In this document: one piece after another, positions 100 to 39,470 of the stretch | Numbering within the stretch: position 1 is the stretch's first letter | How the letters are laid out: every line of letters begins with the position of its first letter | IMG/VR virus record: IMGVR_UViG_3300029181_000008 | Span: 1-41,672 of that record | Length of the DNA: 41,672 bases | Reading direction: 5' to 3' (one strand) | DNA from: a virus | Program-made: the position numbers and the translations under genes | Notes under the pieces: generated by a model | Databases searched by the model: none | What the model saw: the letters and a program-made list of their open reading frames with translations, nothing else | What the model was told of the DNA's origin: nothing

Positions 100-134
100 T
101 CCATGACTTAGAACAGGAGGAAAAAGAGGAATGA
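1..134 (+). CDS. 3' part of the junction-spanning BhlA/UviB-like holin-family membrane protein (5' part at 41441..41672)
   Basis: Joining 41441..41672 to 100..134 gives an 88-aa ORF (MALLETLIPACISAGVTLLVCLINN...HDLEQEEKEE) with an N-terminal TM helix plus coiled coil. Its stop overlaps the next start (ATGA at 131-134). Confidence 0.7.
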   Translation, partial: RVDKHNSVIERTYELEKNMAVVMEKIGVANHRIHDLEQEEKEE

Positions 135-319
135 AGAAGTGGTTAAAAACCGTAGGTATCAGATGCGTTAAGACTATGGCGCAGGCAGCAATTGGAGTCA
201 TTGGCTCCTCTGCCATGCTTGCCGAGGTAGACTGGAAGGTGTGCCTATCAACCGTTGTGTTAGCAGGTATCACTTGCATCTTGATGAACGTAAGCCAGAT
301 CAAGGAAACGGAGGTATGA
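131..319 (+). CDS. Holin (small two-TM protein)
   Basis: 62 aa with two hydrophobic segments (AQAAIGVIGSSAML, LSTVVLAGITCILM). It sits immediately upstream of the endolysin. Confidence 0.75.
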   Translation: MKKWLKTVGIRCVKTMAQAAIGVIGSSAMLAEVDWKVCLSTVVLAGITCILMNVSQIKETEV

Positions 320-533: not shown

Positions 534-1514
534 ATGGTAAGAATCGGGTCTGCGAGAATTGACGAGAGTGGAAAATTGAAGGGCGGACAGCCTGGCGACC
601 AGACAGGGCAGGAAGTGGCGATTGAGCCATGGTATCTGCACGATAAGGGGTGGATAGTCATCCGTGCCAAAGATGCAGCAGTGCGTGAGCGTATCGCACA
701 GTGCATGGAAGCAGCGTGCGCAAATAATAATGTTGGCTATGATCAGTCTACGTCTTGGGATTTGTACGATAAGGCTAAGCAGTACGGATGGGATTGCAGC
801 AAGGTTAACACCCCAGTGGAGACAGACTGTAGCAGCCTTGTACGTGTATGTGTAGCTTTTGCTATTGGCAAGGATGTGCCGTGGTTTTCAACAGCTAATC
901 AGGTGCTTGTACTTGATGCAACAAAGCTTTTTGATGTTATTACAGATACAAGTGTTACCAATCATGATACCGCCCTTAAACGTGGGGATATTCTCTGCAC
1001 ACGCACACAGGGGCACACCGTGGTAGTCCTTGATAACGGATCGGCAGTAAGCGGCAGCACCTCAAAGCCATTAGAGGGCAATACAAGCTTCTGCGGCAAG
1101 GGTATCGGAACAGCAGTTGCAAAGACTGCAATGCATATTAGAGACGGAGCAAAAGGCTCTGCAAACTCTCTTGCTATCATCCAAAAGGGAACGGCAGTAG
1201 AAGTACTTGAAGTAACCGCTGATTTTTGGTACAAAATCGTGTGGCCAGGTGCATCATGTGGCTACGCATATACTAAGGGCGGTGAAGTGTACTACGATTA
1301 CACAGCCATTAAGTCTACAGCTATCAACGTGGGCGATACGGTATACTTTTTTGGTGGAGCGCAGTATATCTCCGCATGGGCTACAACACCAGTAGCAGCA
1401 AAAGCAGGACACGCAAAAGTTACGCAGCTTTGCGCAACTGGCAAGCATAACTATCATATTGTAGGCGATGGTGTCTACGGTTGGGTAGATGGAAACACGC
1501 TGAAAAAGGAGTAA
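534..1514 (+). CDS. Endolysin: N-terminal papain-fold (NlpC/P60- or CHAP-like) cysteine peptidase plus C-terminal SH3b-like wall-binding repeats
   Basis: Has a candidate catalytic Cys (ETDCSSLV) and His (QGHTVVVLD). The C-terminal half contains SH3b-like segments (AMHIRDGAKGS...WYKIVWPG and GDTVYFFGG...VYGWVDGNTL). It lies next to the holin. Confidence 0.8.
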   Translation: MVRIGSARIDESGKLKGGQPGDQTGQEVAIEPWYLHDKGWIVIRAKDAAVRERIAQCMEAACANNNVGYDQSTSWDLYDKAKQYGWDCSKVNTPVETDCSSLVRVCVAFAIGKDVPWFSTANQVLVLDATKLFDVITDTSVTNHDTALKRGDILCTRTQGHTVVVLDNGSAVSGSTSKPLEGNTSFCGKGIGTAVAKTAMHIRDGAKGSANSLAIIQKGTAVEVLEVTADFWYKIVWPGASCGYAYTKGGEVYYDYTAIKSTAINVGDTVYFFGGAQYISAWATTPVAAKAGHAKVTQLCATGKHNYHIVGDGVYGWVDGNTLKKE

Positions 1515-1662: not shown

Positions 1663-1920
1663 ATGGATAGAGGGCTTGTTAAGGTATTTTGGGGATGCGG
1701 TGACAATGGTATAATCGAGTATGCCCTGATGAGGGCGCGACTGAATCGGAAGGAGAAAGAGGCAGTAACTTATCTTCTGGATGAGTGTATGTCTCAAGAG
1801 GAAGCAGCGGAAAAGATGTGCGTAAGTACGCGAAGATTTCAAGAGTACTGGTACGCGGCATCTGACAAGCTGCTGTCTCTTCCGTGGCTTGCGGCTTATG
1901 CGGAAGAACTGAAAAAATAG
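1663..1920 (+). CDS. Small sigma-70-region-4/LuxR-like HTH regulator
   Basis: Internal ATG of ORF 1588..1920. The segment LNRKEKEAVTYLLDECMSQEEAAEKMCVSTRRFQEYW has a region-4-like HTH pattern. Confidence 0.6.
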   Translation: MDRGLVKVFWGCGDNGIIEYALMRARLNRKEKEAVTYLLDECMSQEEAAEKMCVSTRRFQEYWYAASDKLLSLPWLAAYAEELKK

Positions 1921-1924
1921 CATG

Positions 1925-1950
1925 GGTGGGGGATTTCCTCCACCTTTTGC
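1925..1950 (+). terminator. Rho-independent terminator after the HTH gene
   Basis: 8-bp stem ggtggggg/cctccacc (one G-U pair), 4-nt loop, then TTTT. Confidence 0.6.
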
Positions 1951-1951
1951 G

Positions 1952-1980
1952 TTGACGTAATGAAAAAATAGTGATATTGT
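1952..1980 (+). promoter_or_regulatory. Sigma-A-type promoter of the secreted-protein moron
   Basis: TTGACG (1952-1957), 17-nt spacer, TG-extended TATTGT (1975-1980). Confidence 0.6.
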
Positions 1981-2013
1981 AGAAGGGCAGAAAAGAAAAT
2001 GGAGGGACACACA

Positions 2014-2583
2014 ATGAGAAAATCTTTGTACGCATTAACCATGGCACTTGCGCTTGCAGTATCTACAGCCCCAGTAATGGCAGAAGAAACAAGCACAGAA
2101 GAAGGAGCTGAGATTGCAGCAGACGAGAACACAGTAGAGGGTATCGAAGCAATGATTCAGCAACTTGAAAAGCAGATTGCGGAATTGAAGCAGAAGTTAA
2201 AAGAGCTTCGAGGAGAGGATGCAATTCAGGAGGGAGATATCGTATATCAGGACGATATGGTAATCATTACCTACAATGGCATATCTGATGAGTATGGACG
2301 ATATGATATCATGCTTACTGCCGAGAATTTGACTGATAAAAAAATTCGTGTGCAGACATCTGATACATCAATCAATGGCTACATGACATACCAAATGTTT
2401 TCTGTTGGCTTAGAAGCCAATAAAAAATCGAAGGGAACGCTTACTATTGATGACAGTGTAGAGGTTGAAAATATCGAAGATTTGCAGAATGTAGAGACAA
2501 AAATTCAAGTATTGGATGATACTACATATGAAGAGCTTCTTCTTACTGACCCAATTACTATCAATTTCAACATTGAAAAATAA
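2014..2583 (+). CDS. Secreted protein (signal peptide, coiled coil, beta-rich domain); moron
   Basis: GGAGGG RBS lies 6 nt before ATG 2014. MRKSLYALTMALALAVSTAPVMA-EE is a signal-peptidase-I type leader with no lipobox Cys. Confidence 0.75.
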   Translation: MRKSLYALTMALALAVSTAPVMAEETSTEEGAEIAADENTVEGIEAMIQQLEKQIAELKQKLKELRGEDAIQEGDIVYQDDMVIITYNGISDEYGRYDIMLTAENLTDKKIRVQTSDTSINGYMTYQMFSVGLEANKKSKGTLTIDDSVEVENIEDLQNVETKIQVLDDTTYEELLLTDPITINFNIEK

Positions 2584-2702: not shown

Positions 2703-3086
2703 ATGTATAAAAGATATAATCCAAACCCAGTTGCAGCAAGAGTAGGAGATTGCACCGTCAGGGCATTATGCAAGGCTCTTGATCAGGACTGGGACAAGAC
2801 CTACTTACAACTTTGCGTGCAGGGCTTGCTGATGGCTGATATGCCGTCTGCAAATGCAGTGTGGGGCGCATACCTGCATGACGAAGGTTTTAGGCGAGGT
2901 ATAGTCTCTGAGGCTTGCCCTATCTGCTATAACGTTGCATCATTTGCGGCAGAACATCCACAAGGGGTGTATGTATTGGCACTGGGAAGCCATGTTGTAA
3001 CTGTGGTTGATGGTGATTATTATGATACATGGGACTCAGGGCAGGAAATCCCCCTCTACTTTTGGGAAAGGAGTGATGAGAAGTGA
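2703..3086 (+). CDS. Small Cys-His-Asp enzyme (papain/transglutaminase-like fold predicted); first gene of the cargo operon
   Basis: Internal ATG with a GGAGGG RBS. Ordered motifs are GDCTVRA (Cys), GSHVVTV (His) and YYDTWDSG (Asp). Confidence 0.65.
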   Translation: MYKRYNPNPVAARVGDCTVRALCKALDQDWDKTYLQLCVQGLLMADMPSANAVWGAYLHDEGFRRGIVSEACPICYNVASFAAEHPQGVYVLALGSHVVTVVDGDYYDTWDSGQEIPLYFWERSDEK

Positions 3087-3568
3087 GTTACCCCTACTAT
3101 GGCTATCAAAATTTTGGGCAACCGTATAGCCCACCCGTGCCAGATCAGCTAGCACAGATGAGAATGCAGCAGAGTCCACAAATGCAGGGCTATCAGAATT
3201 TTGGGCAACAGCAGCCTCAGCCCTCTGCGGACGACCGTATTTGGGTTCAAGGGCAGAATGCAGCAGAAGCCTATCTTGTAGCTGCTAATGGATTTGTGAG
3301 ACTGTGGGATAGTAGCCGACAAGTTTTCTACGAGAAACGAGCTGACAGCTCTGGACGACCTTACATGGAAACGTATGAGTATCAGCGCAAGGGTGCGGAA
3401 TCGCCCAACGTAGGCACGGAGACGCAGAAGCAAGCTGTTGACTACTCAAAAGAGATAAGCGGCTTAAAGCAGCGTTTAGCGGCTCTGGAAGCACACTTTA
3501 AGAACGGAGGTAGTGTAGATGCAATTTCAAAATCCAATGCAGATGATACAGCAATTCCAACAGTTTAA
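3083..3568 (+). CDS. Gln/Pro-rich N-terminus plus small beta domain protein
   Basis: GTG start overlaps the upstream stop (GTGA). GYQNFGQ is duplicated in a Q-rich first ~50 aa, followed by IWVQGQNAAEAYLVAANGFVRLWD. Confidence 0.65.
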   Translation: MSYPYYGYQNFGQPYSPPVPDQLAQMRMQQSPQMQGYQNFGQQQPQPSADDRIWVQGQNAAEAYLVAANGFVRLWDSSRQVFYEKRADSSGRPYMETYEYQRKGAESPNVGTETQKQAVDYSKEISGLKQRLAALEAHFKNGGSVDAISKSNADDTAIPTV

Positions 3569-3704
3569 AAAAGCATTTACTGGTGATCCCAAAGCAGAGG
3601 TTCAGAAGCTTCTTACCTCTGGGAAAATCAATCAGCAACAGCTCAATCAGTTGCAAGCAATGGCGCAACAGTTTCAAGGGTTGTTAAATAGCAATGGTAA
3701 GTAA
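3519..3704 (+). CDS. Small Gln-rich helical protein
   Basis: GGAGG RBS lies 7 nt before the ATG. 61 aa with QQFQQF, QQQLNQLQAMAQQFQ. Overlaps the previous gene by 50 nt out of frame. Confidence 0.6.
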   Translation: MQFQNPMQMIQQFQQFKKAFTGDPKAEVQKLLTSGKINQQQLNQLQAMAQQFQGLLNSNGK

Positions 3705-3757: not shown

Positions 3758-4612
3758 ATGAGTTTAACAAGTGAAAGTATGACTCCTGCCGATATCGCAG
3801 CCGTAACAGGTAATAACGGTAACGGAATGTGGGGTGATGGTGGTGCATGGTGGATCATCATTCTTTTCCTCTTCGTGTTCTGCGGTTGGGGAAACGGTAA
3901 CGGATGGGGAAACAACGGAGGTGCAGGCGCGGCTGATAACTACGTTTTAGCAAGCGATTTTGCAACCTTACAGCGACAGATCGACAGCTCTACAGCGTCA
4001 TTAGAGCGCAAATCCGATGCGATCAACAGTGGACTCTGTGATGGCTTTTACGCGATGAATACCACCGCTTTAAACGGCTTCTCAGGTGTCAACCAGAATC
4101 TTAGTAACGGCTTTGCACAGGCTGAATTGTCTCGTGCTAACGGACAGATGGGCTTAATGCAGCAGATGAACGCTAACAACATCACGGCTATGCAGAATGC
4201 CAACGCTTTGCAGTCTCAGCTTGCACAGTGCTGCTGCGATAACCGAGAGGCTATCTCTGGTGTGAACTACAACATGGCGATGAATACCAATGCCTTGCAG
4301 CACAGTGTAGAATCTGGATTCTGCCAGACGAACTACAACAACGCTTCCAATACGCGCGATATCATCGACAACCAGAACAGCAACGCAAGAGCGATCCTTG
4401 ATGCACTGAATGCACAGCAGATTGCGGCAAAAGATGCGAAGATTGCCGAGCAGAATCAGCAGATTTTTGGCTTGCAGCTTGCAGCATCTCAGCAGGCACA
4501 GAACAATTACTTAGTTCAGACACTTAAACCTGCACCAGTTCCGAGCTTTCCTGCTGGACAGCTCTACGGCTACATGGGTGGCTGCTGCAATCCGTGCAAT
4601 AGCTGTTCCTGA
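3758..4612 (+). CDS. Membrane-anchored Asn/Gln-rich, Cys-cluster protein
   Basis: AGGAG RBS. One TM helix (GAWWIIILFLFVFCGW) is flanked by a GNGNGWGNNGG tract. Has internal CCC (QCCCDN) and a C-terminal GGCCNPCNSCS. Confidence 0.7.
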   Translation: MSLTSESMTPADIAAVTGNNGNGMWGDGGAWWIIILFLFVFCGWGNGNGWGNNGGAGAADNYVLASDFATLQRQIDSSTASLERKSDAINSGLCDGFYAMNTTALNGFSGVNQNLSNGFAQAELSRANGQMGLMQQMNANNITAMQNANALQSQLAQCCCDNREAISGVNYNMAMNTNALQHSVESGFCQTNYNNASNTRDIIDNQNSNARAILDALNAQQIAAKDAKIAEQNQQIFGLQLAASQQAQNNYLVQTLKPAPVPSFPAGQLYGYMGGCCNPCNSCS

Positions 4613-4627
4613 TAGGGGGTGGCGAGT

Positions 4628-5038
4628 ATGGCAGAATATACGTTAACCACACCTACAGCCGTCCCTCTGGGCGGTGCAGTGCCATATACCAACACAATTA
4701 TCAAGGGTTGCTGTAACATCAAGCATAGAGCAGGTTCAGGGCAGGTGACTGTCAAGGGCGGCACTTGCTGCAACCCTGCAAAGTACCTCGTGTACTTTCA
4801 CGCCAACGTAACAGGAGTTGCAGGAGCAATTCAGCTTGCGCTGTTTTTGGATGGCGAGAGGCTTCCAGAAACCTTGATGGCTGTTGTTCCTGCCGCTGCG
4901 ACTGACGTTTGGTCAGTGAGTGCAGAAACTGAATTTTGCGTGGACTGCTGCTGTGGCACAGTCTCAGCAAGAGTAGTAGAGGGTGCAACGGTTACAGTTA
5001 ATACAGCGGAAATAATCGTGAAAAAGGAGGTGGCATAA
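4628..5038 (+). CDS. Cys-cluster beta-sandwich protein, BclA-C-terminal/C1q-like pattern
   Basis: ATG 4628 lies 8 nt after AGGGGG (the ORF track starts at GTG 4619). Pattern is KYLVYFHANVTG...IQLALFLDGERL with CC, CC and CCC clusters. Confidence 0.6.
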   Translation: MAEYTLTTPTAVPLGGAVPYTNTIIKGCCNIKHRAGSGQVTVKGGTCCNPAKYLVYFHANVTGVAGAIQLALFLDGERLPETLMAVVPAAATDVWSVSAETEFCVDCCCGTVSARVVEGATVTVNTAEIIVKKEVA

Positions 5039-5433
5039 TGGGAACAATGGAAGATTTAAAACGCATGATTTGCACAGAACTTGAAGAAATCGCCAAAAAG
5101 GGTGAAATGTCCGCAGGCGATCTTGATACAGTATACAAGCTCATCGTATCGAAGGAAAAGCTTCTGCGCATTGACGAGCTTGAAGAAAAGCTTGGCTATA
5201 GCGAAGACGGCAGAAAATGGAGATACAGCAGAGACGGAGAGCCAGATGGCGGCAGCAGCTATGGACGGCATTATGTGAGGGCACACTACAGCAGAGACGG
5301 TAGAGGACGCTACAGCATGGATGAGGGACGCACGATGCTTGCAGATCAGATCAGAGATATGATTGATAACAGTGATCTGAGCCAGAACCAGAAAGGCGCA
5401 CTCAGAAAGGCAATGGAAGCTTTGCAGGAGTGA
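5038..5433 (+). CDS. Helical protein with a central Arg/Gly/Tyr-rich YSRDG-repeat segment
   Basis: AAGGAGG RBS. Start overlaps the upstream stop (TAATG). Contains RYSRDG...HYSRDGRGRYSMDEG. Confidence 0.65.
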   Translation: MGTMEDLKRMICTELEEIAKKGEMSAGDLDTVYKLIVSKEKLLRIDELEEKLGYSEDGRKWRYSRDGEPDGGSSYGRHYVRAHYSRDGRGRYSMDEGRTMLADQIRDMIDNSDLSQNQKGALRKAMEALQE

Positions 5434-5454: not shown

Positions 5455-5778
5455 ATGCTTGATATGGACGAGATAAAAAGTGAGATTGCACGGCTTGAAA
5501 ATGGAAATATCACCTTTTCAACTGTGGAAAAGCTTGCTATGCTCTACATAGTGCAAGAGCGCAACTCCCCTATACCAGAACCAGAGCCAGTTGAGATACA
5601 GCAAATGCCAAAGTATGCGTATGCAGCCGCACCAACTGCCCCTAAATCTGATTTTTTAGAGGCGGTTGGAAAAGTACCGATAGAAAAAGCCTTAGATGTA
5701 CTGGATGAGCATATGGAAGCAATAAAGCTGCTATATCCTAAGGAGTACAAGGCTGTGATAAACAAAATATTGGCATAA
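5455..5778 (+). CDS. Hypothetical protein, last gene of the cargo operon
   Basis: AAGGGGG RBS. 107 aa with a Pro/Glu linker (PIPEPEPVEIQQ). Confidence 0.6.
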   Translation: MLDMDEIKSEIARLENGNITFSTVEKLAMLYIVQERNSPIPEPEPVEIQQMPKYAYAAAPTAPKSDFLEAVGKVPIEKALDVLDEHMEAIKLLYPKEYKAVINKILA

Positions 5779-6016: not shown

Positions 6017-6775
6017 TTACTTTTTATCCTGCCTTTCCTTAATATCCTTTGCTTTGTATTCTGATACAATTTCTTTGATTTTCAATTCCCAACCTTGATT
6101 TTCTTCCAAAAACTTTCCGAAAATTGCATCTTCGGCAGCTTTTCTTGCAGCCTTAGCGTTTTCAATATCTTTGTAAGCTCCAAGGGAGTATTGCTTGCCC
6201 TTAAAAGTAATGTATGCACGATAGCCACCGTGTCTCCCATAAGATACACCATTGATACCAGTTGTAGAGTTAGACCAAATCTTGCCTTCTTGAACTGATT
6301 TCGCAGCTGCAAGAGAAGAACCAGAAACCAAGAACTCTTTTCGCATGTCTTGCAAGAAGTTAGCGTTTTTCTTGTGGCATGAAGAACACTGTTTCATCTT
6401 CGGCAAGTTAGTTAGATATGCTTCTGTTTCTTGCCCACAAACGGGGCAGATTGCTTTACACATATATACCTTGTAGCCATTCATTTCTCGTTGCCATACA
6501 TCTAGCACTTTAAAACCATTTATTGTGCTGCCAATCTTGCTTTTTGCTTTCTTAGCAGAGTTCTCAGATGTTTTCTTTGCAGCCTTCTTGGCTGATTCCT
6601 CTTTGAATAGGCAACCGCAAGATAATGTGAGTCCTCTGGTTAAATTCCACTTGTACACATCTTTAACAGTTCCACATGCGCATTTGCAAGTGTAGTAGTT
6701 GGGTTTGGAAGAAGGGGCTATTACTTCCCAACTTCCAAATCTATCACCTGCTTGAAGATTATGCTTACTGCTCAT
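6017..6775 (-). CDS. DNA-binding protein with two Cys4 zinc-ribbon modules and a C-terminal AP2 domain
   Basis: Two CxC...CGC / CxxC...CxxC repeats are followed by GINGVSYGRHGGYRAYITFKGKQYSLGAYKDIENAKAARKAAE (AP2/ERF-like). Confidence 0.75.
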   Translation of the reverse strand: MSSKHNLQAGDRFGSWEVIAPSSKPNYYTCKCACGTVKDVYKWNLTRGLTLSCGCLFKEESAKKAAKKTSENSAKKAKSKIGSTINGFKVLDVWQREMNGYKVYMCKAICPVCGQETEAYLTNLPKMKQCSSCHKKNANFLQDMRKEFLVSGSSLAAAKSVQEGKIWSNSTTGINGVSYGRHGGYRAYITFKGKQYSLGAYKDIENAKAARKAAEDAIFGKFLEENQGWELKIKEIVSEYKAKDIKERQDKK

Positions 6776-7128: not shown

Positions 7129-8463
7129 TTAAACAAAGTACACCTTGTCGACTGAGTGACGCTTGATCTCGATTCTCCTCACAACTCTGTGCCAGAAATC
7201 TCGCTTTCCCTGCCTTGATAGCTGCTCGTAAATTTCCTTCCAGTTATCTGGCATCTGGCTGACTGGTAGCGCAGGTGCTGCCAAACTCTCAAGCTCCGCA
7301 AGCTGTGCTTTCAGCTCTTTTGTCTTTTCAAGATACTCAGCACGGCTCATATCACCATCAAGGTATATATCTTTCAGCCGTTCCAATCTCCCCTTGATCT
7401 TCTCAATTTTTCCCTCGGTGCTTTTTGCTTTCGCTGCAAGCTTCTGAACGCTTGCGTTATAATCTACAATCAATTCTTCCAGATGATCTATCATGTAGCT
7501 TTCCAAATTGTGTTCCATGATGAATGCAGCGTTTTTGCATTCTCCTCTCCGCACGGTTCTCATACGGCATTGATAGTATAGCTTTTCCTTTGGTTTGCCG
7601 TAGCTTGTATAGCAAGTGCACTTTGATCCCATCCTTGCACCACAGCTAGCGCAGAAGATTAACCCTGTAAAAATATATACTCTGTCTGCTTTTGGCTGTC
7701 TGGGATAATGCTGCCTTGCTTGCTGTATAAGCTCATGTTGTGCAGGTGTGATATATCCTGGCACTGATACACCATAGTAAGTGCCGTAGTACGGCTCTTT
7801 ATCAAGCAAAAAATGAGCGGTTTTCCGAGACATTTTCAAGCCCTTTTCGGCAGCTGCATCCATGGCTTGCACTGGGCTGTATGTGTTAAGATAGGTATCA
7901 AAAAAAGCTTGCATAGCTTCTTTTGTCTGAGGATCGAAGTCAATCGTAGATGCTGATGTGCGGATATATCCGAGTGGCATCTTACCTACTATGATATATC
8001 CCTGCGATTTGCGATACTCGTTAACCGCTCTGATACGCTCTGAGGTGCGGTCTGACTCAGCTTGGGCGATACTCAACATAATGTTGACTTTAAACACACC
8101 TGCGGACGTTTCCGTCTCGTAGTCCTCCCAGATAGCTCTCCATGGTACTTTTGCGGCATCAAGCTGACTCTGTACCTCATAGTAGTCCGCAACGGAGCGA
8201 AACCATCTATCGAGCTTTGTAAAAAGGATGATATCAATTTTGTGATCTTTGCAATCCTGTATAAGTTGTAGCAGCGCAGGACGTGCTTTGTACTTCTTTC
8301 TCGCACTAATGCCTGCATCGTTGTAGATGCCTGCGACTTCCAGACCGTTCTCGCGGCAGTACTTTTGCAGCGCATCAATCTGGCTATCTACTGATAAGCC
8401 GTGATCTCTTTGTTCTGCGGTTGATACGCGGACATATATAGCCGCCCTTTTCTTTCCTTCCAT
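7129..8463 (-). CDS. int: Large serine recombinase (phage integrase)
   Basis: N-terminal resolvase motif AAIYVRVSTAEQ, recombinase domain, Cys-rich zinc-ribbon segment (CASCGARMG...YYQC) and C-terminal coiled coil. 444 aa. Confidence 0.95.
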   Translation of the reverse strand: MEGKKRAAIYVRVSTAEQRDHGLSVDSQIDALQKYCRENGLEVAGIYNDAGISARKKYKARPALLQLIQDCKDHKIDIILFTKLDRWFRSVADYYEVQSQLDAAKVPWRAIWEDYETETSAGVFKVNIMLSIAQAESDRTSERIRAVNEYRKSQGYIIVGKMPLGYIRTSASTIDFDPQTKEAMQAFFDTYLNTYSPVQAMDAAAEKGLKMSRKTAHFLLDKEPYYGTYYGVSVPGYITPAQHELIQQARQHYPRQPKADRVYIFTGLIFCASCGARMGSKCTCYTSYGKPKEKLYYQCRMRTVRRGECKNAAFIMEHNLESYMIDHLEELIVDYNASVQKLAAKAKSTEGKIEKIKGRLERLKDIYLDGDMSRAEYLEKTKELKAQLAELESLAAPALPVSQMPDNWKEIYEQLSRQGKRDFWHRVVRRIEIKRHSVDKVYFV

Positions 8464-8728: not shown

Positions 8729-8804
8729 AAAGATAACCGATATGCTACAAACGCAAAGCGAAGATGTGTTGCTGTTGATCTACGAAATCTTGCTTAAGAT
8801 GTAG
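8709..8804 (+). CDS. Small helical peptide, paralog 2 (31 aa)
   Basis: AAAGGAG RBS. MKKMLIKKITDMLQTQSEDVLLLIYEILLKM, similar to paralog 1. Its 3' end overlaps the convergent repressor gene's 3' end by 11 nt. Confidence 0.5.
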   Translation: MKKMLIKKITDMLQTQSEDVLLLIYEILLKM

Positions 8805-9183
8805 CGTGTTTGAGTGCTTTGAGGTTGCCCAGTATGTCCCCGAAGATTTCTGCTTGATCTTCCGAGAGCTGCAAAACATACTGTACAGCCTCAATTGCAA
8901 CTTGATAGCGGCTTGATGTAGGATCAAGTTGCCTCAGTTGGCTTGCGATGTTGGAGATTTCCGCGCATGATGCAGCCTGCATTTCGCCTTTTCCAGTCCG
9001 CAACCACTCCTCTCTAATGCTGAATCTCTCGCAGATCAGCGTGATACTCTGCGTGCTTGGCTTGCTTTTTCCACTGCACATGTTAGATACTGCTGACTCC
9101 GAAATTTGCAAAGTTCGTGCCAGTCCTGCCTGTTTCATTCCCTTCATCTTCAATATCTGTAAAATTCTATCGCCGATTTCCAT
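8794..9183 (-). CDS. XRE-family repressor-like protein 1
   Basis: MEIGDRILQILKMKGMKQAGLARTLQISESAVSNMCSGKSKPS is an HTH_XRE pattern. Paralogous to 9562..9957 (shared REEWLRTGKGEM / NEAWLRTGEGEM). Confidence 0.85.
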   Translation of the reverse strand: MEIGDRILQILKMKGMKQAGLARTLQISESAVSNMCSGKSKPSTQSITLICERFSIREEWLRTGKGEMQAASCAEISNIASQLRQLDPTSSRYQVAIEAVQYVLQLSEDQAEIFGDILGNLKALKHATS

Positions 9184-33312: not shown

Positions 33313-33617
33313 GCGCAGACGAGGAGACGCGGAGAGTGCTTTACCTCTGCATAGGAGATTACAGAGGTAGAACACTAGCAGGTTTTTTCGCGTATGTGCA
33401 AGGCAGACATGCACAGTACGTAGAAAACCTGCTTTATCGCGTTTATTTGACGGATGCGCTGCAAAAAATCTGCGAAAACACTGCTAACTTTGCAGGCGGG
33501 CACATCATGAAGCAGCGATATTATGATGTGGCATATGGAAAGCCTAAAAAGGAAGAAGATGCAGAAGAGATCATAACAAAAATTATTAAAGCGGCAGGAC
33601 TGGAGGTGAGGCTGTGA
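33303..33617 (+). CDS. T-like extension of the tail assembly chaperone, reached by a -1 frameshift (fusion 32974..33617)
   Basis: The -1 frame is open from 33273. A T5 run (33302-33306) sits two codons before the G stop. There is no RBS or ATG for independent initiation (the track start is GTG 33336). Confidence 0.55.
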   Translation, partial: FYLSADEETRRVLYLCIGDYRGRTLAGFFAYVQGRHAQYVENLLYRVYLTDALQKICENTANFAGGHIMKQRYYDVAYGKPKKEEDAEEIITKIIKAAGLEVRL

Positions 33618-36600
33618 ATATACTTGAACTTGTTGCAGGGATATCTGTTGATTCGTCAGGCATGGAAGAGGGCTTAGAATCTCTTGCTACACGTGCTGTA
33701 GCGAAGGGAAAGCTAATTGCAGATGCTATAGGCACAGTAGCCACTAAAGGCTTTGATCTACTGAAAGGTGCTATATCATCATCAGTAGAAACTGGAAAGT
33801 CATTTGACACAGCTATCTCACAGGTTGCAGCGACAACAGGTCAGACAGTAGACCAAATTGGAGACTTGAAGGCTGCTGCTGAGGAAATGGGAGCAACCAC
33901 AAAATTCACAGCCACCGAAGCAGCAGAAGGTATCAATATATTATCGCAGGCTGGCATGTCGGCGGCTGATATTTTAAACGAAGATGCCAACGGAGCTACC
34001 CTTTTAAGTACGACACTTGATCTTGCTTCGGCTGGCGCAATGTCGATGGAATCCTCTGCTACATACCTTACATCATCCTTGAAAGGCTTTAAAAAAGAGG
34101 GCAAATCCGCGGCATACTATGCAGATTTGATGGCTAAGGGTGCTACTCTTGCAAATACTAATGTAAGCGGTTTGGGCGAGGCATTATCTGGTGTCTCTGC
34201 CAATGCCTCAGCTTACGGGCAAGCTTCTGATTCTGTAACGCTATCTCTGCTTAAATTAGCAGAGGCTAATGTTACTGGCTCGAATGCAACGACTGCGCTT
34301 AACTCTGCAATGTCTGAGGTTTACACGCCTACAGATCAGGCTAAAAAGGCTTTGGATAGCTTGGGAGTATCTGCATATAACGCTGATGGAACTGCACGTG
34401 ATTTTAACGATGTGGTAGATAATCTCACAGGGGCATTATCTGGGATGACGGATCAGCAAAAGAACGCTACCCTTAATACTATCTTTGGTGTGCAAGGGCT
34501 TGATGCATACAATAAGATGGCGGCTGTATCGGCTGATAAAACAAACGAGTTTAAAGCGGCTCTTGCAGATGCAGGAGGTTCGGCTGCATCGCAGGCACAG
34601 ACTCAGCTTGATAATTTAGGCGGTTCATTTACCCTTTTAAGCTCTGCAACTGATGGTTTAAAGCTTGCGTTTTACAACCTCTTTTCCAAGACGTTAAAGG
34701 ACGGTGTAGACCTTGCCACAGACTCAATCACTATCTTAACTGATGGGTTGAGTTCTGGCGGTTTACTGGGGCTTGTGGAGTCTCTGGGAGGTGTTGCTGA
34801 TAATGCAGTAACCAAGCTGTTAGGAAAACTTAGCTCTCTCACCAAGCTTCCTCTGGTATCTTGGTTCAAGCAAATCAAAAAAACTGGTGCAGATGCTTTC
34901 TCTGGTCTTGGCGGTGCTGTAAAAACTCTTTTTTCTGCATTTGATCCAGTTATCAGTGCTGTAAAAGAATTTTTAGGACTCACAGATGATGCAGGAGGCA
35001 CAATTGATAATGCACGAGCCAAGATGGATGCAGGAAAGTCAGCTCTCGAAGCGATCAAGCAAGCGATCAGCGTAGCAGGGCAGGTTGTAACGTGGTTTGT
35101 ATCAGTTCCGCTAACTGGGCTTGCAAATATCCTTGGGCAGAGTTTGCTTGCTAAATTTAACATTTTAAAAGCTGTATTTACATCGGCTGTTGATTTTATA
35201 TCAAGCTTGCCTGTCATGGACTGGCTTGAAAAGCTTCAAAGTGCTTTCTCTAGTGCGTTTGATTCCATTGCAAGTGCGATTTCACCATTAGTTGATGCAG
35301 TGCTTAATTTTTCCAATTATCTGGTGAGCCTGGTAACTGATTTTTCAGACGCAGGGACACAAAGCACAGCGTTTGGAACTGCATTATCAGTGCTTAATGT
35401 GATTGTTGATGGCATTGCAACTGCGATCCAGTTTGCAGGTGATATTATCTCTGGTGTTATCTCAGTACTAGCGCAAGCGATCAACCAGATTGTAACTGAT
35501 GCACAGACAGATGGTACGCTTATCAACTCAATTATCACTGGCATTCAGTCAGCAGTGGAGACTGCATTTGCGATAATTGCGGATGTATGGCAAAACGTAT
35601 TACTACCAGTTTTTACTGGCATCTATACATGGCTATCTGAAAATATCGGCCCGATATCAACGGAGGTTTTTAATGCTCTCGGTGAAGTTGTAACGGCTGT
35701 TTTTTCGGTGATTGAGGCAGTTTGGAACAACGTATTGCTGCCAGTATTTACCGCTTTGTTGTCCTCGCTTGAAGATAACATAAAACCGCTTTTTGAGACT
35801 ACTTTTCAAGCAGCACAAGAAGCTGTCAGTGTAGCATTCCAGATGATTGCAGACACTTGGGAAAACCACTTGAAACCTTGCTGGGACGCAATCAAGACTT
35901 TCGCAGATGAAACGCTTTTGCCATGTTTTCAAGCGATTGGAGATTTCCTTAGAGAAAATCTTAAACCAGTATTTGACGAGGTTTTTAAGGCGGTATCAGA
36001 GAGTGTAACAACGGCTTTTGATACAATCGTAAGTTGGTGGGATAATGTTTTGAAGCCGCTTTTTGATGGAATGCTAGATTTTGTAACTAACATCTTTTCA
36101 GGCAAATGGAGTGATGCTTGGAACGGAATTGTAAGTACATTTTCGACTGTTTTTGCAGGCATTATAGAGTTTGCAAAAACACCAATCAATGCAGTTATCA
36201 AGTTGATTAACGGTGCAATAGCTGGCATAGAGTCGGCTTTAAATGCAGTTATCGGAGCGATGAACAAAATCTCAGTAACAATTCCAGATTGGGTTCCGGG
36301 CTTTGGCGGTAGCAACTTTGGAATAAATATACCAACTGTCGGATTTGGAAGAATCGGAGAGCTTGAAAAAGGCGGTATCTTGCGTAAAGGTCAGAAGGGA
36401 TTGCTAGAGGGAAAAGGTGACGAAGCAGTTGTGCCTCTGGAGAAGTCTGAAGGATGGCTCAACAAGCTTGCTGAGAAGATCAACGACAATCCAAAGCCTA
36501 CACAAGTAACCGTAGTGATAGACGGCTACGACAAGGATAAGAAAGAGCTTGCAGAAGCTGTAGCTGAGGAGGTATCAAAGCAGATGGCAGACGATTATGA

Positions 36601-36625
36601 CAGAGATAGGAGGGTATTTGCATGA
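33614..36625 (+). CDS. Tail tape measure protein
   Basis: 1003 aa, Ala/Gly/Ser-rich and helical, with a TP901-type core (TTKFTATEAAEGINILSQAGM). Confidence 0.92.
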   Translation: MNILELVAGISVDSSGMEEGLESLATRAVAKGKLIADAIGTVATKGFDLLKGAISSSVETGKSFDTAISQVAATTGQTVDQIGDLKAAAEEMGATTKFTATEAAEGINILSQAGMSAADILNEDANGATLLSTTLDLASAGAMSMESSATYLTSSLKGFKKEGKSAAYYADLMAKGATLANTNVSGLGEALSGVSANASAYGQASDSVTLSLLKLAEANVTGSNATTALNSAMSEVYTPTDQAKKALDSLGVSAYNADGTARDFNDVVDNLTGALSGMTDQQKNATLNTIFGVQGLDAYNKMAAVSADKTNEFKAALADAGGSAASQAQTQLDNLGGSFTLLSSATDGLKLAFYNLFSKTLKDGVDLATDSITILTDGLSSGGLLGLVESLGGVADNAVTKLLGKLSSLTKLPLVSWFKQIKKTGADAFSGLGGAVKTLFSAFDPVISAVKEFLGLTDDAGGTIDNARAKMDAGKSALEAIKQAISVAGQVVTWFVSVPLTGLANILGQSLLAKFNILKAVFTSAVDFISSLPVMDWLEKLQSAFSSAFDSIASAISPLVDAVLNFSNYLVSLVTDFSDAGTQSTAFGTALSVLNVIVDGIATAIQFAGDIISGVISVLAQAINQIVTDAQTDGTLINSIITGIQSAVETAFAIIADVWQNVLLPVFTGIYTWLSENIGPISTEVFNALGEVVTAVFSVIEAVWNNVLLPVFTALLSSLEDNIKPLFETTFQAAQEAVSVAFQMIADTWENHLKPCWDAIKTFADETLLPCFQAIGDFLRENLKPVFDEVFKAVSESVTTAFDTIVSWWDNVLKPLFDGMLDFVTNIFSGKWSDAWNGIVSTFSTVFAGIIEFAKTPINAVIKLINGAIAGIESALNAVIGAMNKISVTIPDWVPGFGGSNFGINIPTVGFGRIGELEKGGILRKGQKGLLEGKGDEAVVPLEKSEGWLNKLAEKINDNPKPTQVTVVIDGYDKDKKELAEAVAEEVSKQMADDYDRDRRVFA

Positions 36626-37332: not shown

Positions 37333-39470
37333 TTCCTATTTTATACGCAGCGACTGAGAAAAAGTTTAAATCGCAAGGCTTAGGAGCTTTGGTGGATGCG
37401 ATCACTTGCAAAGTCACTGAGGAAAGAAACGGCTCATATGAGTTGACGATGACTTACCCTTTGAGTGGTCAGCATTTTGAAGATTTGGAGCTGTCAAGAA
37501 TTATCAAAGCCGTACCGTCTTACAAAACCGACCCAGAACCGTTTCGCATCTACGCTATCAGCAAGCCATTAAGCGGAATTGTAAAAGTAAGTGCGGAGCA
37601 TATCTCATATCAGCTATCACACATACCAGTAACACCCTTTGAAGCATCTAACGTAGTTGAGGCGATGGATAACCTCAAAAAGTACTCAGCAGAGGATAAC
37701 CCTTTTTCTTTCTGGACTAGCAAAGAAACGCAAGCAAAAATGGCTTTTACAGTTCCGACCTCTTGCCGTGCTCTGCTTGGTGGTGTAGAAGGGAGCATTT
37801 TGGATACCTACAGGGGAGAGTATGAGTTTGCTGGGTACACTGTAAAGCTACATCAAAACCGAGGATCGAATAAAGGTGTAACGATTCGCTATGGCAAGAA
37901 CCTCACTGATTTAAAGCAAGAGGAAAGTATTGCAAACACGATCACAGGTATCTGCCCTTTCTGGAAAAGTGAGGAAACCGAAGAGGTTGTAACACTTCCA
38001 GAAGTATCAGTGTACAGCAAGTACGCAAATAACTTCCCTTATAAACGGACTGCGGTACATGATTTTTCGGCAAGCTTTGAGGAAAAACCAACCTTAGAAC
38101 AACTTAGAGCCAAGGCAGAAAGCTACATTACGCAGAGTGGTGTAGGTGTGCCTGATGTATCCCTTACAGTATCTTTTGTAGTGCTGTCGCAGTTTGAAGA
38201 GTACAAAGATATAGCTGCATTAGAGTCCGTCAACCTCTGCGATACAGTAAATGTTATATTTGATGATTTGAGCATAAACACAACTGCAAAAGTTGTGAAA
38301 ACCGTGTATGACGTGCTACTTGATAAGTACGATAGTATCACGGTTGGAAGTACTCAAAACAGCCTCACCAAGAAGCTCACAGAGATTGACGAGAACACGC
38401 AAGAGGAAATCAACAAGGAAACCTCTGCCAGAAAAAGAGCGATTACAGAGCTTGTAAAGAAGGTAGAGCAGGGCAGCGGTTTGTATGTAACTGATAAAGG
38501 AACTGGTGGGGCGCATGATTGGTTTTTGCATGATAAGCCAGTCCTTGAAGAATCTCAGACCATCATTCGTATCAATGATGGTGGCATAATTTTTTCTATT
38601 GATGGTGGTGAGACTTACAACGGCTTAGATTGGAGCGGTACAGCAATCTTGCAAAAAATTTACACTGTGGGCATCAACGCAGCGTATATAGATACTGGAC
38701 AGCTAAAGGTTGTAGATAACACTGGAAAGACTCTTTTTTGTGCCGATATGGACACTGGCGAGGTTGCTATAAACTCTGGCTTGCTTAAAGTTGGTGCAGG
38801 ATATATTAACACTAACGGACGTTTTAAAATTGGCTCTATGTATTCGCAGGGTGGAGTATATAACAAAGATACAGGGATATACGAGCGGCAAGATGTGTGT
38901 TTTGATAAGGCAATATTTATCAATTACGGAATTGAGCTTTACGGTAACAACGACTCAGCTGAGGGCATTGCATACTGTGATTTTCACTCTGGGTCAGACG
39001 TGACGACAGGTGATAGTTTGTATGATTACACTGGACGTTTGCAAAACTATCTTGCGCCTGCTGGGACAAGTGAGTTTACGTTTTCTGGAAAAAAGAAAGT
39101 TGATGATACAGAGGCAGGTACTTGCACAGTAGCAGTAAACGGAACGATTGTGCATTCATCTGACAGGCGATTAAAAGATAACATTGAAGATATATCTTGT
39201 GATACTGCAACAGACTGGATAATGGCTCTAAACCCAGTGAAGTATAATTATAAAGCTGATAGTGAACTCAAAGTGCATCATGGACTTGTATATCAAGAGG
39301 TACAGGAAACCGCCAAAGAATTATCTATGGATAATCTGGCATTGCTTCAAGAGTTCCGAGGAGCTGATAAAGTGGTTTACGGTGCTATCGGATACGAAGA
39401 ACTGATAGCCGATCTCATAAAAGTGGTACAAAATCATGAGAAAATTTTGAGAGGAGAACAAAATGATTAA
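37317..39470 (+). CDS. Tail-associated protein (Tal) with a C-terminal S74 intramolecular-chaperone domain
   Basis: N-terminal LIPILYAATEKKFKSQGLGAL (minor structural protein N-terminal type). C-terminal SSDRRLKDNIEDI...ALNPVKYNYK...HGLVYQEV. Confidence 0.85.
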   Translation: MVDNLIPILYAATEKKFKSQGLGALVDAITCKVTEERNGSYELTMTYPLSGQHFEDLELSRIIKAVPSYKTDPEPFRIYAISKPLSGIVKVSAEHISYQLSHIPVTPFEASNVVEAMDNLKKYSAEDNPFSFWTSKETQAKMAFTVPTSCRALLGGVEGSILDTYRGEYEFAGYTVKLHQNRGSNKGVTIRYGKNLTDLKQEESIANTITGICPFWKSEETEEVVTLPEVSVYSKYANNFPYKRTAVHDFSASFEEKPTLEQLRAKAESYITQSGVGVPDVSLTVSFVVLSQFEEYKDIAALESVNLCDTVNVIFDDLSINTTAKVVKTVYDVLLDKYDSITVGSTQNSLTKKLTEIDENTQEEINKETSARKRAITELVKKVEQGSGLYVTDKGTGGAHDWFLHDKPVLEESQTIIRINDGGIIFSIDGGETYNGLDWSGTAILQKIYTVGINAAYIDTGQLKVVDNTGKTLFCADMDTGEVAINSGLLKVGAGYINTNGRFKIGSMYSQGGVYNKDTGIYERQDVCFDKAIFINYGIELYGNNDSAEGIAYCDFHSGSDVTTGDSLYDYTGRLQNYLAPAGTSEFTFSGKKKVDDTEAGTCTVAVNGTIVHSSDRRLKDNIEDISCDTATDWIMALNPVKYNYKADSELKVHHGLVYQEVQETAKELSMDNLALLQEFRGADKVVYGAIGYEELIADLIKVVQNHEKILRGEQND

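Follow-up and report, generated by a model that had tools for sequence, protein, structure and literature searches.

What is built by two neighbouring phage genes when one encodes a membrane-anchored protein, the other a free-standing beta sandwich, and the products of both carry runs of adjacent cysteines? The question is raised by the virus record IMGVR_UViG_3300029181_000008 of IMG/VR, which was analyzed over its positions 1 to 41,672 (this whole stretch of 41,672 nucleotides is called the window in the following). The first gene (3758..4612, + strand; phrog_16490) encodes P1, a bitopic membrane protein of 284 amino acids (aa), and the second (4628..5038, + strand; phrog_20016, E 2e-27) encodes P2, a protein of 136 aa for which structure prediction with AlphaFold2 and comparison with Foldseek indicate a stand-alone jelly roll of the TNF/C1q fold. 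An earlier sequence-only reading of this DNA had placed both proteins outside the cytoplasm and had suggested a lattice of intermolecular disulfides or, alternatively, metal binding. The P1-P2 finding is real and non-random, and its interpretation as a surface lattice is only partly supported. The best explanation of the whole, to which we assign a probability of about 0.4, is that P1 and P2 are the core of a peptidase-matured, membrane-tethered complex joined via the cysteine clusters.

Two conserved neighbours

That P1 and P2 belong together, as had been supposed, is borne out by their synteny. A relative of P1 lies directly 5' of P2 in all 52 P2-anchored loci on viral contigs, down to 25-35% identity, and a P2-family open reading frame (ORF) lies directly 3' of P1 in 70 of the 80 viral contigs anchored on P1 (4 of the other 10 end at P1). 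The family statistics of P1 are based on 85 relatives that are non-redundant at 70% identity; 60 of these loci have a P2-family ORF 3' of P1, and in another 11 the P2 slot is filled by some other small ORF, either beta-rich or Cys-rich. Clustering of the neighbouring ORFs and scans of a further 80 loci from GTDB genomes with hidden Markov models (HMMs) revealed two fixed gene orders, cl3-cl1-cl7-P1-P2-cl4(-cl5) and cl1-cl7-P1-P2-cl4-cl3.

P1 is an orphan bitopic membrane protein. Its gene is preceded by a good ribosome-binding site (AAAGGAG), and the protein contains a single hydrophobic segment at residues about 29-45 (3842..3892, + strand), with AWWIIILFLFVFCGW at residues about 30-44 (mean Kyte-Doolittle value 2.4; best 15-residue window 2.36), in agreement with the one transmembrane helix proposed before. 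An acidic N-terminal tail, the hydrophobic helix, a Gly/Trp/Asn linker, an A/N/Q-rich helical domain, a Pro-rich motif and a Cys/Gly tail follow one another, and the conserved features hold across relatives of 27-97% identity. The N-terminal tail, of about 25-35 residues, bears (L/M)(S/T)xxD(I/V)Axx(S/T)G in many members and MPVAPxYG in others, and in the alignments GAWWIIILFLF of the helix is conserved far beyond the level of a generic anchor. The domain beyond the linker comprises about 190 residues, is predicted to be helical and contains CCC(D/E)N followed by an ASQxxQ motif; in the window the CCC triplet, C158-C160, lies in QCCCDN and is encoded by TGC TGC TGC at 4229..4237 (+ strand). 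At the C-terminus stands a conserved P.P.P(A/S)(Y/F).V.NP motif, of which P260 and P262 are invariant in the alignment, and then the Cys/Gly tail, which reads GGCCNPCNSCS in the window (motif and tail together at 4529..4609, + strand). The richness in Asn, Gln and Ala that had been described was likewise found (A 14.8%, N 13.5% and Q 10.9% after residue 55). The several similar segments that had been thought to make up this region were not recovered as repeats: the best off-diagonal score of 74 is not significant against shuffled sequences (55 +/- 10, maximum 83), and the copy number varies among P1 homologues only for a short NGF-containing unit.

The family is large, with at least 7,966 clusters at 90% identity in a word-indexed search, and with at least 2,209 clusters at 50% identity at E <= 1e-3 and 1,073 at E <= 1e-10 in an exhaustive HMM search. 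The best 150 HMM matches are 129-340 aa long, with zero domain fusions among them. Profile searches, including searches with the P1 alignment, gave no match in Pfam, NCBIfam, PADLOC or the sequences of the PDB. In one protein of 327 aa (P0181) the N-terminal three quarters of P1 are fused to a cl5-like C-terminus and P2 and cl4 are skipped; this is probably a deletion or an assembly artefact, though it links the first and the last parts of the cassette.

For P2, the most likely start is the ATG at 4628 rather than the listed GTG at 4619, because the ATG is preceded by the ribosome-binding site GGGGGTGG and because close homologues are 136 aa long and begin with MAEY. The AlphaFold2 model, based on a 30-sequence alignment, is all-beta with 11 strands (mean predicted local distance difference test score, pLDDT, 94.3; predicted template-modelling score 0.86). 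The best match of this monomer model in the PDB was the C-terminal domain (CTD) of F-BclA (9h38; E 6e-9, template-modelling (TM) score 0.78, probability 1.00), followed by BclA (1wck, 3tyj, 2z5w), BxpB (8d02) and ExsFA/ExsF (7r5i, 9h3d) and, at lower ranks, by EDA, C1q and C1q-like heads, with TM-scores of 0.70-0.79 overall. Thus, by its model, P2 is a TNF/C1q jelly roll that among solved structures comes closest to BclA-CTD and BxpB/ExsF of the exosporium, and the BclA-like domain that had been suspected is confirmed at this level. The nearest predicted viral structures (BFVD) are stand-alone proteins of 130-145 aa from uncultured Sipho-, Myo- and Podoviridae, two of which were deposited as 'BclA protein'. 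By sequence, P2 matched no Pfam family at E <= 1, no NCBIfam model at E <= 0.1 and no PADLOC model, and phmmer found nothing among PDB sequences at E <= 10. P2 has no signal peptide, no lipobox and no collagen repeats, and in the model the first beta strand begins at residue 2.

In its architecture, a domain alone without collagen stalk, P2 is closer to BxpB/ExsF than to BclA. BxpB and ExsFA, anchor proteins in the basal layer of the exosporium in the Bacillus cereus group, are also stand-alone jelly rolls (about 140-170 aa) without collagen stalk or signal peptide, they align with P2 at TM-scores of 0.75-0.79 (8d02; 7r5i, 9h3d), and the partner peptide of ExsF is Pro-rich, as is the conserved motif in which P1 ends. 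However, the identity in structural alignments is 12-14% and there is no phmmer match; P2 is phage-encoded and carries 4-8 cysteines in three loops; P1 is a membrane protein and has its Pro-rich motif at the C-terminus instead of the N-terminus; neither P1 nor P2 matches the exosporium leader TIGR03720 (NCBIfam, E <= 0.1); and many of the hosts, as well as the cultured host Butyrivibrio, are not known exosporium formers. The CTDs of BclA and F-BclA and the C1q and TNF domains (9h38, 1wck, 1pk6, 1rj7) share the ten-strand jelly roll (best Foldseek E 6e-9 to 1e-7), but P2 consists of the domain alone, without collagen-like GXX repeats and without a match to Pfam BclA_C (PF18573), and neither BclA nor C1q is characterized by a Cys-rich pole. 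Vicinal cysteines serve intermolecular cross-linking in the ExsY/CotY lattices and the Ena1/2 (DUF3992) fibres, e.g., in the C12C13 motif of Ena2A; in P2, by contrast, they are located in internal loops rather than in an N-terminal connector, the context is a phage, and Ena and ExsY gave no Pfam or NCBIfam match to P2 and are absent from the top 50 Foldseek matches. The knobs of phage fibres and spikes (phi812 9eul, cyanophage A4 9k09, PRD1 P5-type heads) have the same fold and are encoded by late genes, but they are the C-terminal domains of long fibres, whereas P2 is free-standing, has a membrane partner and is usually encoded outside the structural operon. A literature search on phage-borne BclA/C1q-like pairs found nothing relevant. 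What is new here is P2 as a Cys-loop-bearing, phage-borne variant of a known fold class, and P1 together with the whole cassette, which are without a described counterpart.

The cysteine motifs that had drawn attention to the pair are all present, i.e., QCCCDN (C158-160), GFCQTN (C189) and the terminal GGCCNPCNSCS in P1, and KGCCNIK (C28, C29), GGTCCNP (C47, C48) and CVDCCCG (C104, C107-109) in P2. They are not a general property of this genome: the 420 aa of P1 and P2 contain seven CC dipeptides, compared with two in the 11,556 aa of the other 46 window ORFs, and cysteine makes up 3.5% of P1 and 5.9% of P2 versus 1.6% of the other ORFs. The clusters are also conserved, with CCC kept in 84 of the 85 P1 relatives and with C47, C108 and C109 kept in 82%, 93% and 90%, respectively, of the 61 P2 relatives on which the cysteine statistics of P2 are based. 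The CCNP motif is indeed shared by both proteins in the window, but it is missing from the P1 tail even in homologues with 93% identity. The three clusters of P2 (all on the + strand) fall into loops of the model: C28 and C29 (4709..4714) between strands 22-25 and 31-33, C47 and C48 (4766..4771) between strands 40-43 and 51-62, and C104 and C107-C109 (4937..4954) in the hairpin of strands 95-106 and 109-118. This distribution is typical of the family, in which 285 of 306 cysteines (93%) lie within residues 22-32, 41-50 and 100-112; the commonest pattern is 1+1+2, and the P2 of the window is expanded to 2+2+4. Mapped onto the canonical TNF topology, whose strands alternate upwards and downwards beginning with an N-terminus at the base, the loops would be A'-B', B-C and F-G, all three at the base pole near both termini.

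The tail of P1 varies with the protein encoded next to it. Cysteine occurs within the last 10 residues of P1 in all 60 relatives that are followed by a P2-family gene, while the three loci without P2 (L135, L136 and L142) all have Thr-rich P1 tails without terminal cysteine; P1 of the L127 type ends with ...YYNGTTIA, and its partner is a Cys-free jelly-roll-like ORF. The total number of P1 cysteines correlates weakly with that of P2 (rho 0.38, p 0.003); the correlation of the P1-tail cysteines with the P2 cysteines is not significant (rho 0.17, p 0.20). These sequence patterns suggest that a Cys-based junction is shared by the tail of P1 and whatever protein occupies the P2 slot. If the proteins are produced in the cytoplasm of a strict anaerobe, coordination of a metal (Zn or Fe-S), the alternative of the sequence-only reading, is a more plausible role for the cysteines than standing disulfides, and oxidative cross-linking after lysis is also possible.

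The cassette, its putative peptidases and its position

Upstream of P1 in the window lie cl1 (3083..3568, + strand; phrog_21718, E 2e-20), with a Q/P/Y-rich disordered N-terminus, a small beta-type domain of the pattern IWVQG..GA.AY.V....V.L.DS...FY.K..D..G.P and a C-terminal helix, and cl7 (3519..3704, + strand), a Q-rich helical protein of 61 aa that is conserved between cl1 and P1 and gave HMM matches in most GTDB loci; the cl1 gene is found directly 5' of cl7 and P1 in most loci. P2 is followed in most loci by cl4 (5038..5433, + strand; phrog_28802, E 9e-6), a helical protein with an R/G/Y/D/S-rich low-complexity centre, and in the subgroup of the window the cassette ends with cl5 (107 aa; 5455..5778, + strand), a cluster that is present in 62 loci. 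The start codon of cl4 overlaps the stop codon of P2 (ATAATG), which suggests translational coupling of these two genes. No signal peptides were found in cl1, cl3, cl4 and cl7. The six cassette families have no Pfam, NCBIfam or PADLOC model and match only PHROGs of unknown function; no family emerged when a diverse set of cl3, cl1, cl4 and the cl223 type described below was compared with Pfam, and PADLOC gave zero matches for P1, P2, cl3, cl4, cl5 and cl7 and for cl1 only E 0.022 to PDC-S16.

The slot 3' of P1 is also occupied by other proteins. ORFs with a BclA-CTD-like pattern that were missed by the P2 HMM are present at L127:6813-7202 (also in L130 and L131), L117:6867-7382 and L137:3682-4134, the last type having an extra N-terminal Cys-rich extension and DCCCCG. 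Nine non-redundant loci have instead a protein of the cl223 type (L102:6877-7269, L106:7821-8273, L190:3273-3677 and six others), which is Cys-rich, 120-150 aa long and characterized by an N-terminal CxxxCxLC and a C-terminal CC.P.

A proteolytic enzyme seems to accompany the cassette in one of two forms. The first, cl3 (2703..3086, + strand; phrog_3754, E 7e-29), is a predicted papain-like cysteine peptidase, judged from the order Cys...His...Asp (C18, H98, D109) among the residues that are invariant in 17 diverse sequences (N7, N9, D17-C18, R21, H98, G105 and D109); homologues in the Bacillus phages Kirov, Izhevsk and KoopaTroopa are labelled 'putative peptidase'. It is found at one or the other end of the cassette in 57 of the 85 non-redundant loci. 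In 12 loci (L116:7873-8187, L132:7959-8327 and 10 others) its place is taken by cl133, an unrelated HExxH protein of about 105 aa that matches the putative metallopeptidase family DUF6782 of Pfam, and in none of the 85 loci do the two occur together. That the two exclude each other argues for proteolysis as an integral step of the cassette. A profile search of PDB sequences with the cl3 alignment gave no match. It should be noted that cl3 is a strict member of the cassette only within phages of Clostridia: the family also occurs alone, without P1 and P2, among early or accessory genes of Geobacillus phage GBK2 (L214) and of Tsamsa-like Bacillus phages including Kirov (L215).

A substrate of such a peptidase could be P1 itself. 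Its residues 1-20 (3758..3820 in the window) follow (M/L)(S/T)xxD(I/V)Axx(S/T)G(N/R) and thereby show a spacing like that of double-glycine leaders, in that positions -4, -7 and -12 are hydrophobic, -8 is acidic and -2 is Gly; the N or R found at -1 does not fit. In a rumen phage, a canonical stand-alone Peptidase_C39 gene lies directly 5' of P1 (L037:4567-4980), and at another locus two AgrB-like membrane proteins are encoded 5' of the cassette (L102:4078-5100). Together with the leader-like motif, these neighbours hint at peptide processing. Two of the three 'Peptidase_C39' neighbour matches turned out to be ordinary endolysins of the C39_2 type. A relationship of cl3 itself to C39 is not supported, as hhalign against the genuine C39 domain of L037 gave a probability of 0.1% and no Pfam or NCBIfam model matched.

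The usual place of the cassette is where the late region ends, between the genes for lysis and those for integration, as follows from the surveys of flanking genes. Among 146 upstream neighbours from diverse loci (two ORFs 5' of the cassette), holins, lysins (glucosaminidase, CHAP, amidase, ELLD and C39_2 type) and small sigma-70 region-4 proteins are enriched, with Pfam Sigma70_r4 and r4_2 matching 5 and 3 of them, respectively. On the 3' side, recombinases were found (12 of the tyrosine and 4 of the serine type), as were metabolic genes of the host, which mark where the prophage ends, and, twice, scaffold proteins. In the window the P1/P2 block likewise lies between the lysis genes and a convergently oriented integrase. 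A small helix-turn-helix (HTH) protein resembling sigma-70 region 4 is encoded upstream of the block (1663..1920, + strand; weak matches to phrog_1190, E 7e-4, and TIGR02937, E 0.058); its ORF is listed from 1588, and homologues support the start MDRGLVKV. Homologous small HTH proteins stand 5' of the cassette in L047, L145 and Butyrivibrio phage Ceridwen (L133), and a similar region-4 protein does so in L205; the protein may be a dedicated regulator of the cassette. Between the lysis/HTH genes and the cassette there are, as consensus matches only, a terminator-like hairpin (1924..1945, + strand) with a T-run and a 9-bp stem, 6 pairs of which are GC, and then a promoter-like site (1952..1980, + strand; TTGACG-17-TATTGT with extended TG). 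Exceptions to the usual position are the cassettes of L106 and L047, which lie between tail-fibre and lysis genes, that of L127 between portal/MuF and scaffold/major-capsid genes, and that of L116 at the end of the late operon in larger phages with nucleotide-metabolism genes.

Judged from GTDB genomes, the hosts are for the most part Clostridia of gut and rumen, besides some Bacilli; the P1 family occurs in phages and prophages of Lachnospiraceae, Oscillospiraceae, Ruminococcus, Acutalibacter and Erysipelotrichaceae-like Bacilli. A few metagenome-assembled genomes labelled Bacteroidota are probably binning errors, because the contigs in question are phage-sized. A tblastn search of 50,697 phage records with P1, cl1, cl3 and cl4 found only unannotated metagenomic phages from gut and lemur samples and Ceridwen, and no studied phage. 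Ceridwen, a phage of Butyrivibrio fibrisolvens for which only lytic growth has been observed, is the only cultured carrier, and its cassette genes, QHJ73765-QHJ73769 and the ones after them, are all annotated as hypothetical.

A proposed membrane-tethered complex and its alternatives

Models of the pair differ in the side of the membrane on which the Cys-rich domain of P1 would reside. The positive-inside and charge-difference rules relate the charge of the flanks of a helix to its membrane orientation. In the 85 P1 relatives the N-terminal tails contain 60 K/R and 250 D/E, and the 15 residues flanking the helix contain 27 K/R and 106 D/E on the N-terminal side and 38 K/R and 36 D/E on the C-terminal side. 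By the two rules, the acidic N-terminal flank predicts an N-out/C-in orientation, in which the Cys-rich domain would face the cytoplasm like the conserved neighbours. Together with the lack of signal peptides in P2 and these neighbours, this prediction speaks against the extracytoplasmic location that had been assumed for both proteins.

The complex that we favour would form as follows. P1 would be inserted N-out/C-in, with its Cys-rich helical domain facing the cytoplasm, in which P2 and the other cassette proteins lacking signal peptides would be made. The Pro-rich motif and the Cys/Gly tail of P1 would then dock on the Cys-lined base of a P2 trimer or in a cleft between its subunits. In ExsF, clefts formed where the subunits of the trimer meet bind the Pro-rich leader of F-Anchor (PMC12357932), and the proposed docking would resemble the binding of Pro-rich leaders of BclA and F-Anchor in ExsF/BxpB trimers. 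Metal ions shared between P1 and P2 would hold the junction in the reducing cell, or disulfides once it is oxidised, and the dedicated peptidase of the cassette would mature one of the cassette proteins. Expression would come from a transcription unit of its own where the late region ends, beside the lysis genes, and the outcome would be a membrane-tethered knob complex rather than a surface lattice. The association with lysis genes and the membrane anchor lean towards a role at the inner face of the membrane, either on the cell envelope around lysis and egress or in superinfection control.

Several observations weigh against this proposal. The charge bias is the sole basis for the orientation of P1. 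Double-glycine leaders are cleaved in the cytoplasm, and if the leader-like motif of P1 were cut by a cytoplasmic peptidase, the N-terminus would have to be cytoplasmic at some stage, which would fit an N-in orientation better. The AlphaFold2 monomer of P1 (22-sequence alignment) is unusable, with a pLDDT of 45, and a coiled-coil stalk of P1, and with it a stalk-and-knob fibre, is not supported, as the family profile shows no 3.5-residue (heptad) periodicity above shuffles. The placement of the P2 loops at the base pole comes from the mapped topology and not from coordinates. Cysteine is not universal in the P2 slot (the ORF of L127 has none), and P2 appears replaceable, the cl223 type having failed as a divergent P2 (hhalign probability 2%); its absence from L135, L136 and L142 shows that P2 and its cysteines are dispensable to some cassettes. 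The P1 proteins of these three loci are 65-69% identical to P2-containing relatives and 56-64% to each other, and the co-variation of tail cysteines with P2 may reflect one broad subgroup and thus few independent events. Finally, the location of the L127 cassette amid head genes and the presence of the cassette in the apparently virulent Ceridwen would be compatible with a role in the virion.

A virion accessory in which P2 is a trimeric knob or decoration, and P1, cl1 and cl4 are minor, internal or ejection proteins, peptidase-matured and with the helix of P1 entering the host membrane, would indeed fit the frequency of TNF-like knobs at phage fibre tips (phi812 9eul, cyanophage A4 9k09 and collagen- or fibre-linked BFVD matches), the invariable co-orientation of the cassette with late genes, its position directly 3' of tail-fibre genes in L106, L047, L116 and L102 and, in L127, the overlapping stop and start codons with which it is embedded between the portal/MuF and the scaffold/major-capsid genes. 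Yet P2 has no N-terminal shaft or attachment domain, the position differs among phages, unlike that of core structural genes, and the cassette mostly follows the lysis genes behind a terminator-like site, outside the structural operon, so that we regard this explanation as unlikely. We are similarly doubtful that there is no specific complex at all, i.e., that the genes are mere neighbours in a mobile 'moron' block, with purely intramolecular roles of the cysteines and coincidental CC motifs. The CCNP motif of P1 is not conserved, its tail cysteines do not track the number of P2 cysteines, and P2 is sometimes absent or replaced; but chance proximity is difficult to reconcile with strict adjacency across deep divergence, with the loss of the terminal Cys tail exactly where P2 is absent, with the correlation of total P1 and P2 cysteines and with the translational coupling through the block. 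Processing might also be an end in itself, if the N-terminus of P1 were a leader of the double-glycine type that is removed by cl3 or the HExxH protein, and a Cys-rich product of the bacteriocin or toxin type were freed at lysis. The -12, -8, -7, -4 and -2 spacing, the Peptidase_C39 and AgrB-like genes of L037 and L102, the presence of one peptidase type or the other (cl3 in 57, cl133 in 12 of 85 loci) and the spacing of Cys18, His98 and Asp109 in cl3, which we take to resemble that of C39 peptidase domains, would be in line with this. It is nevertheless highly unlikely: at -1 an N or R stands where G, A or S would be expected, the MPVAPxYG type lacks the motif and retains cl3, no bacteriocin-leader model of NCBIfam matches, the hhalign comparison of cl3 with the C39 domain failed, no ABC exporter is present, and P1, with 284 aa and a transmembrane helix, is unlike known double-glycine substrates.

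The lattice of the sequence-only reading, with P1 oriented N-in/C-out and joined to P2 in a disulfide-linked layer or appendage that the lysogen or its spore would display as a product of lysogenic conversion, deserves to be weighed against the same data. The best structural relatives of P2 are exosporium and endospore-appendage proteins, and these exosporium proteins also lack signal peptides and are made in the mother cell; the usual spot between lysin and integrase or attachment site is classic for genes of lysogenic conversion; the promoter-like site and the sigma-like regulator upstream would give the cassette its own control; the hosts are mostly Clostridia, many of which form spores; and the Q-rich, Cys-rich and Tyr/Gly-rich low-complexity proteins of the cassette recall spore-coat proteins. 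On a vegetative cell, however, there would be no export route, since the conserved cassette proteins have no signal peptides, and the charge bias of P1 favours the opposite orientation. Moreover, no model of BclA_C, the exosporium leader, DUF3992 or CotY/ExsY matches, the L127 cassette is embedded in head genes and its slot ORF is free of cysteine, the phage of Butyrivibrio fibrisolvens has been seen growing only lytically, and conversion genes are usually patchy, whereas this order is conserved over more than 2,000 clusters at 50% identity. The ExsY/Ena-like extracytoplasmic lattice is therefore improbable. Decidedly unlikely, too, is a broader variant in which the whole cassette would be a phage-borne self-assembly following the logic of the exosporium, with P2 as trimeric anchor, P1 as its partner, low-complexity proteins, peptidase and regulator; its product would be a layer or an appendage, cross-linked through redox chemistry or metal, that is borne by the membrane, the spore or the particle of gut Clostridia.

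Among lysis-associated systems, the membrane-tethered complex may be compared with the spanins Rz/Rz1, in which a bitopic helical membrane protein with important intermolecular cysteines acts with a small partner and is encoded beside holin and endolysin. P1 is also bitopic and Cys-bearing, has a small partner and lies near lysis genes. The hosts are, however, monoderm Firmicutes (Clostridia, Bacilli) and not diderm, P1 is predicted to be N-out/C-in and not N-in/C-out like an i-spanin, it lacks the heptad periodicity that a periplasmic coiled coil would show, and P2 is a jelly roll without lipobox or signal peptide and not a Pro-rich lipoprotein of the outer membrane (o-spanin).

Widespread yet unannotated, the cassette is carried by phages and prophages whose hosts are dominant Firmicutes of gut and rumen, and its breadth, fixed order, peptidase of either class and putative own regulator point to a general, selected step that is invisible to annotation. 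Experimental handles are the confident fold of P2, whose relatives are known as docking platforms, and the availability of Ceridwen in culture. If a redox- or metal-controlled Cys junction were indeed used in strict anaerobes, it would bear on the passage of phage assemblies from anoxic to oxic surroundings; if the assembly followed exosporium logic, it would represent a virus-encoded envelope or coat structure undescribed for tailed phages.

The window genome and further observations

The window is a complete-looking genome of an SPP1-like temperate siphophage. It encodes an r1t-type holin (131..319), an endolysin-like domain with SH3 (534..1514), a serine recombinase (7129..8463, minus strand), a CI-type repressor (8794..9183, minus strand) and a tape-measure protein (33614..36625), as well as a large terminase, an SPP1-type portal and a gp13-like capsid protein. 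In a protein of the tail or baseplate (39463..41289), an N-terminal BppU domain is joined to a GDSL/SGNH esterase; this protein may be a tail enzyme that modifies the receptor by deacetylation.

Between the HTH gene and the cassette, 1999..2583 encodes a secreted protein with the signal peptide MRKSLYALTMALALAVSTAPVMA, a coiled-coil segment and a beta-rich C-terminus; it is found only in close relatives (22 loci) and is outside the conserved core. On the other side, between cassette and integrase, the minus-strand gene 6017..6775 encodes a Cys-rich protein with repeated CxC...CGC modules and matches to HNH-endonuclease PHROGs. At L106:6904-7725 a relative of this product (E 3e-12, 41% identity across the repeat) separates P1 from the gene in the P2 slot, which suggests that genes of this type are mobile, homing-type elements targeting the cassette region. 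The GC content of the window peaks at 0.50 in 4001..5000, i.e., over P1 and P2, compared with 0.34-0.48 elsewhere, and this peak fits either the Gly/Ala/Cys codon content or a separate origin of the block.

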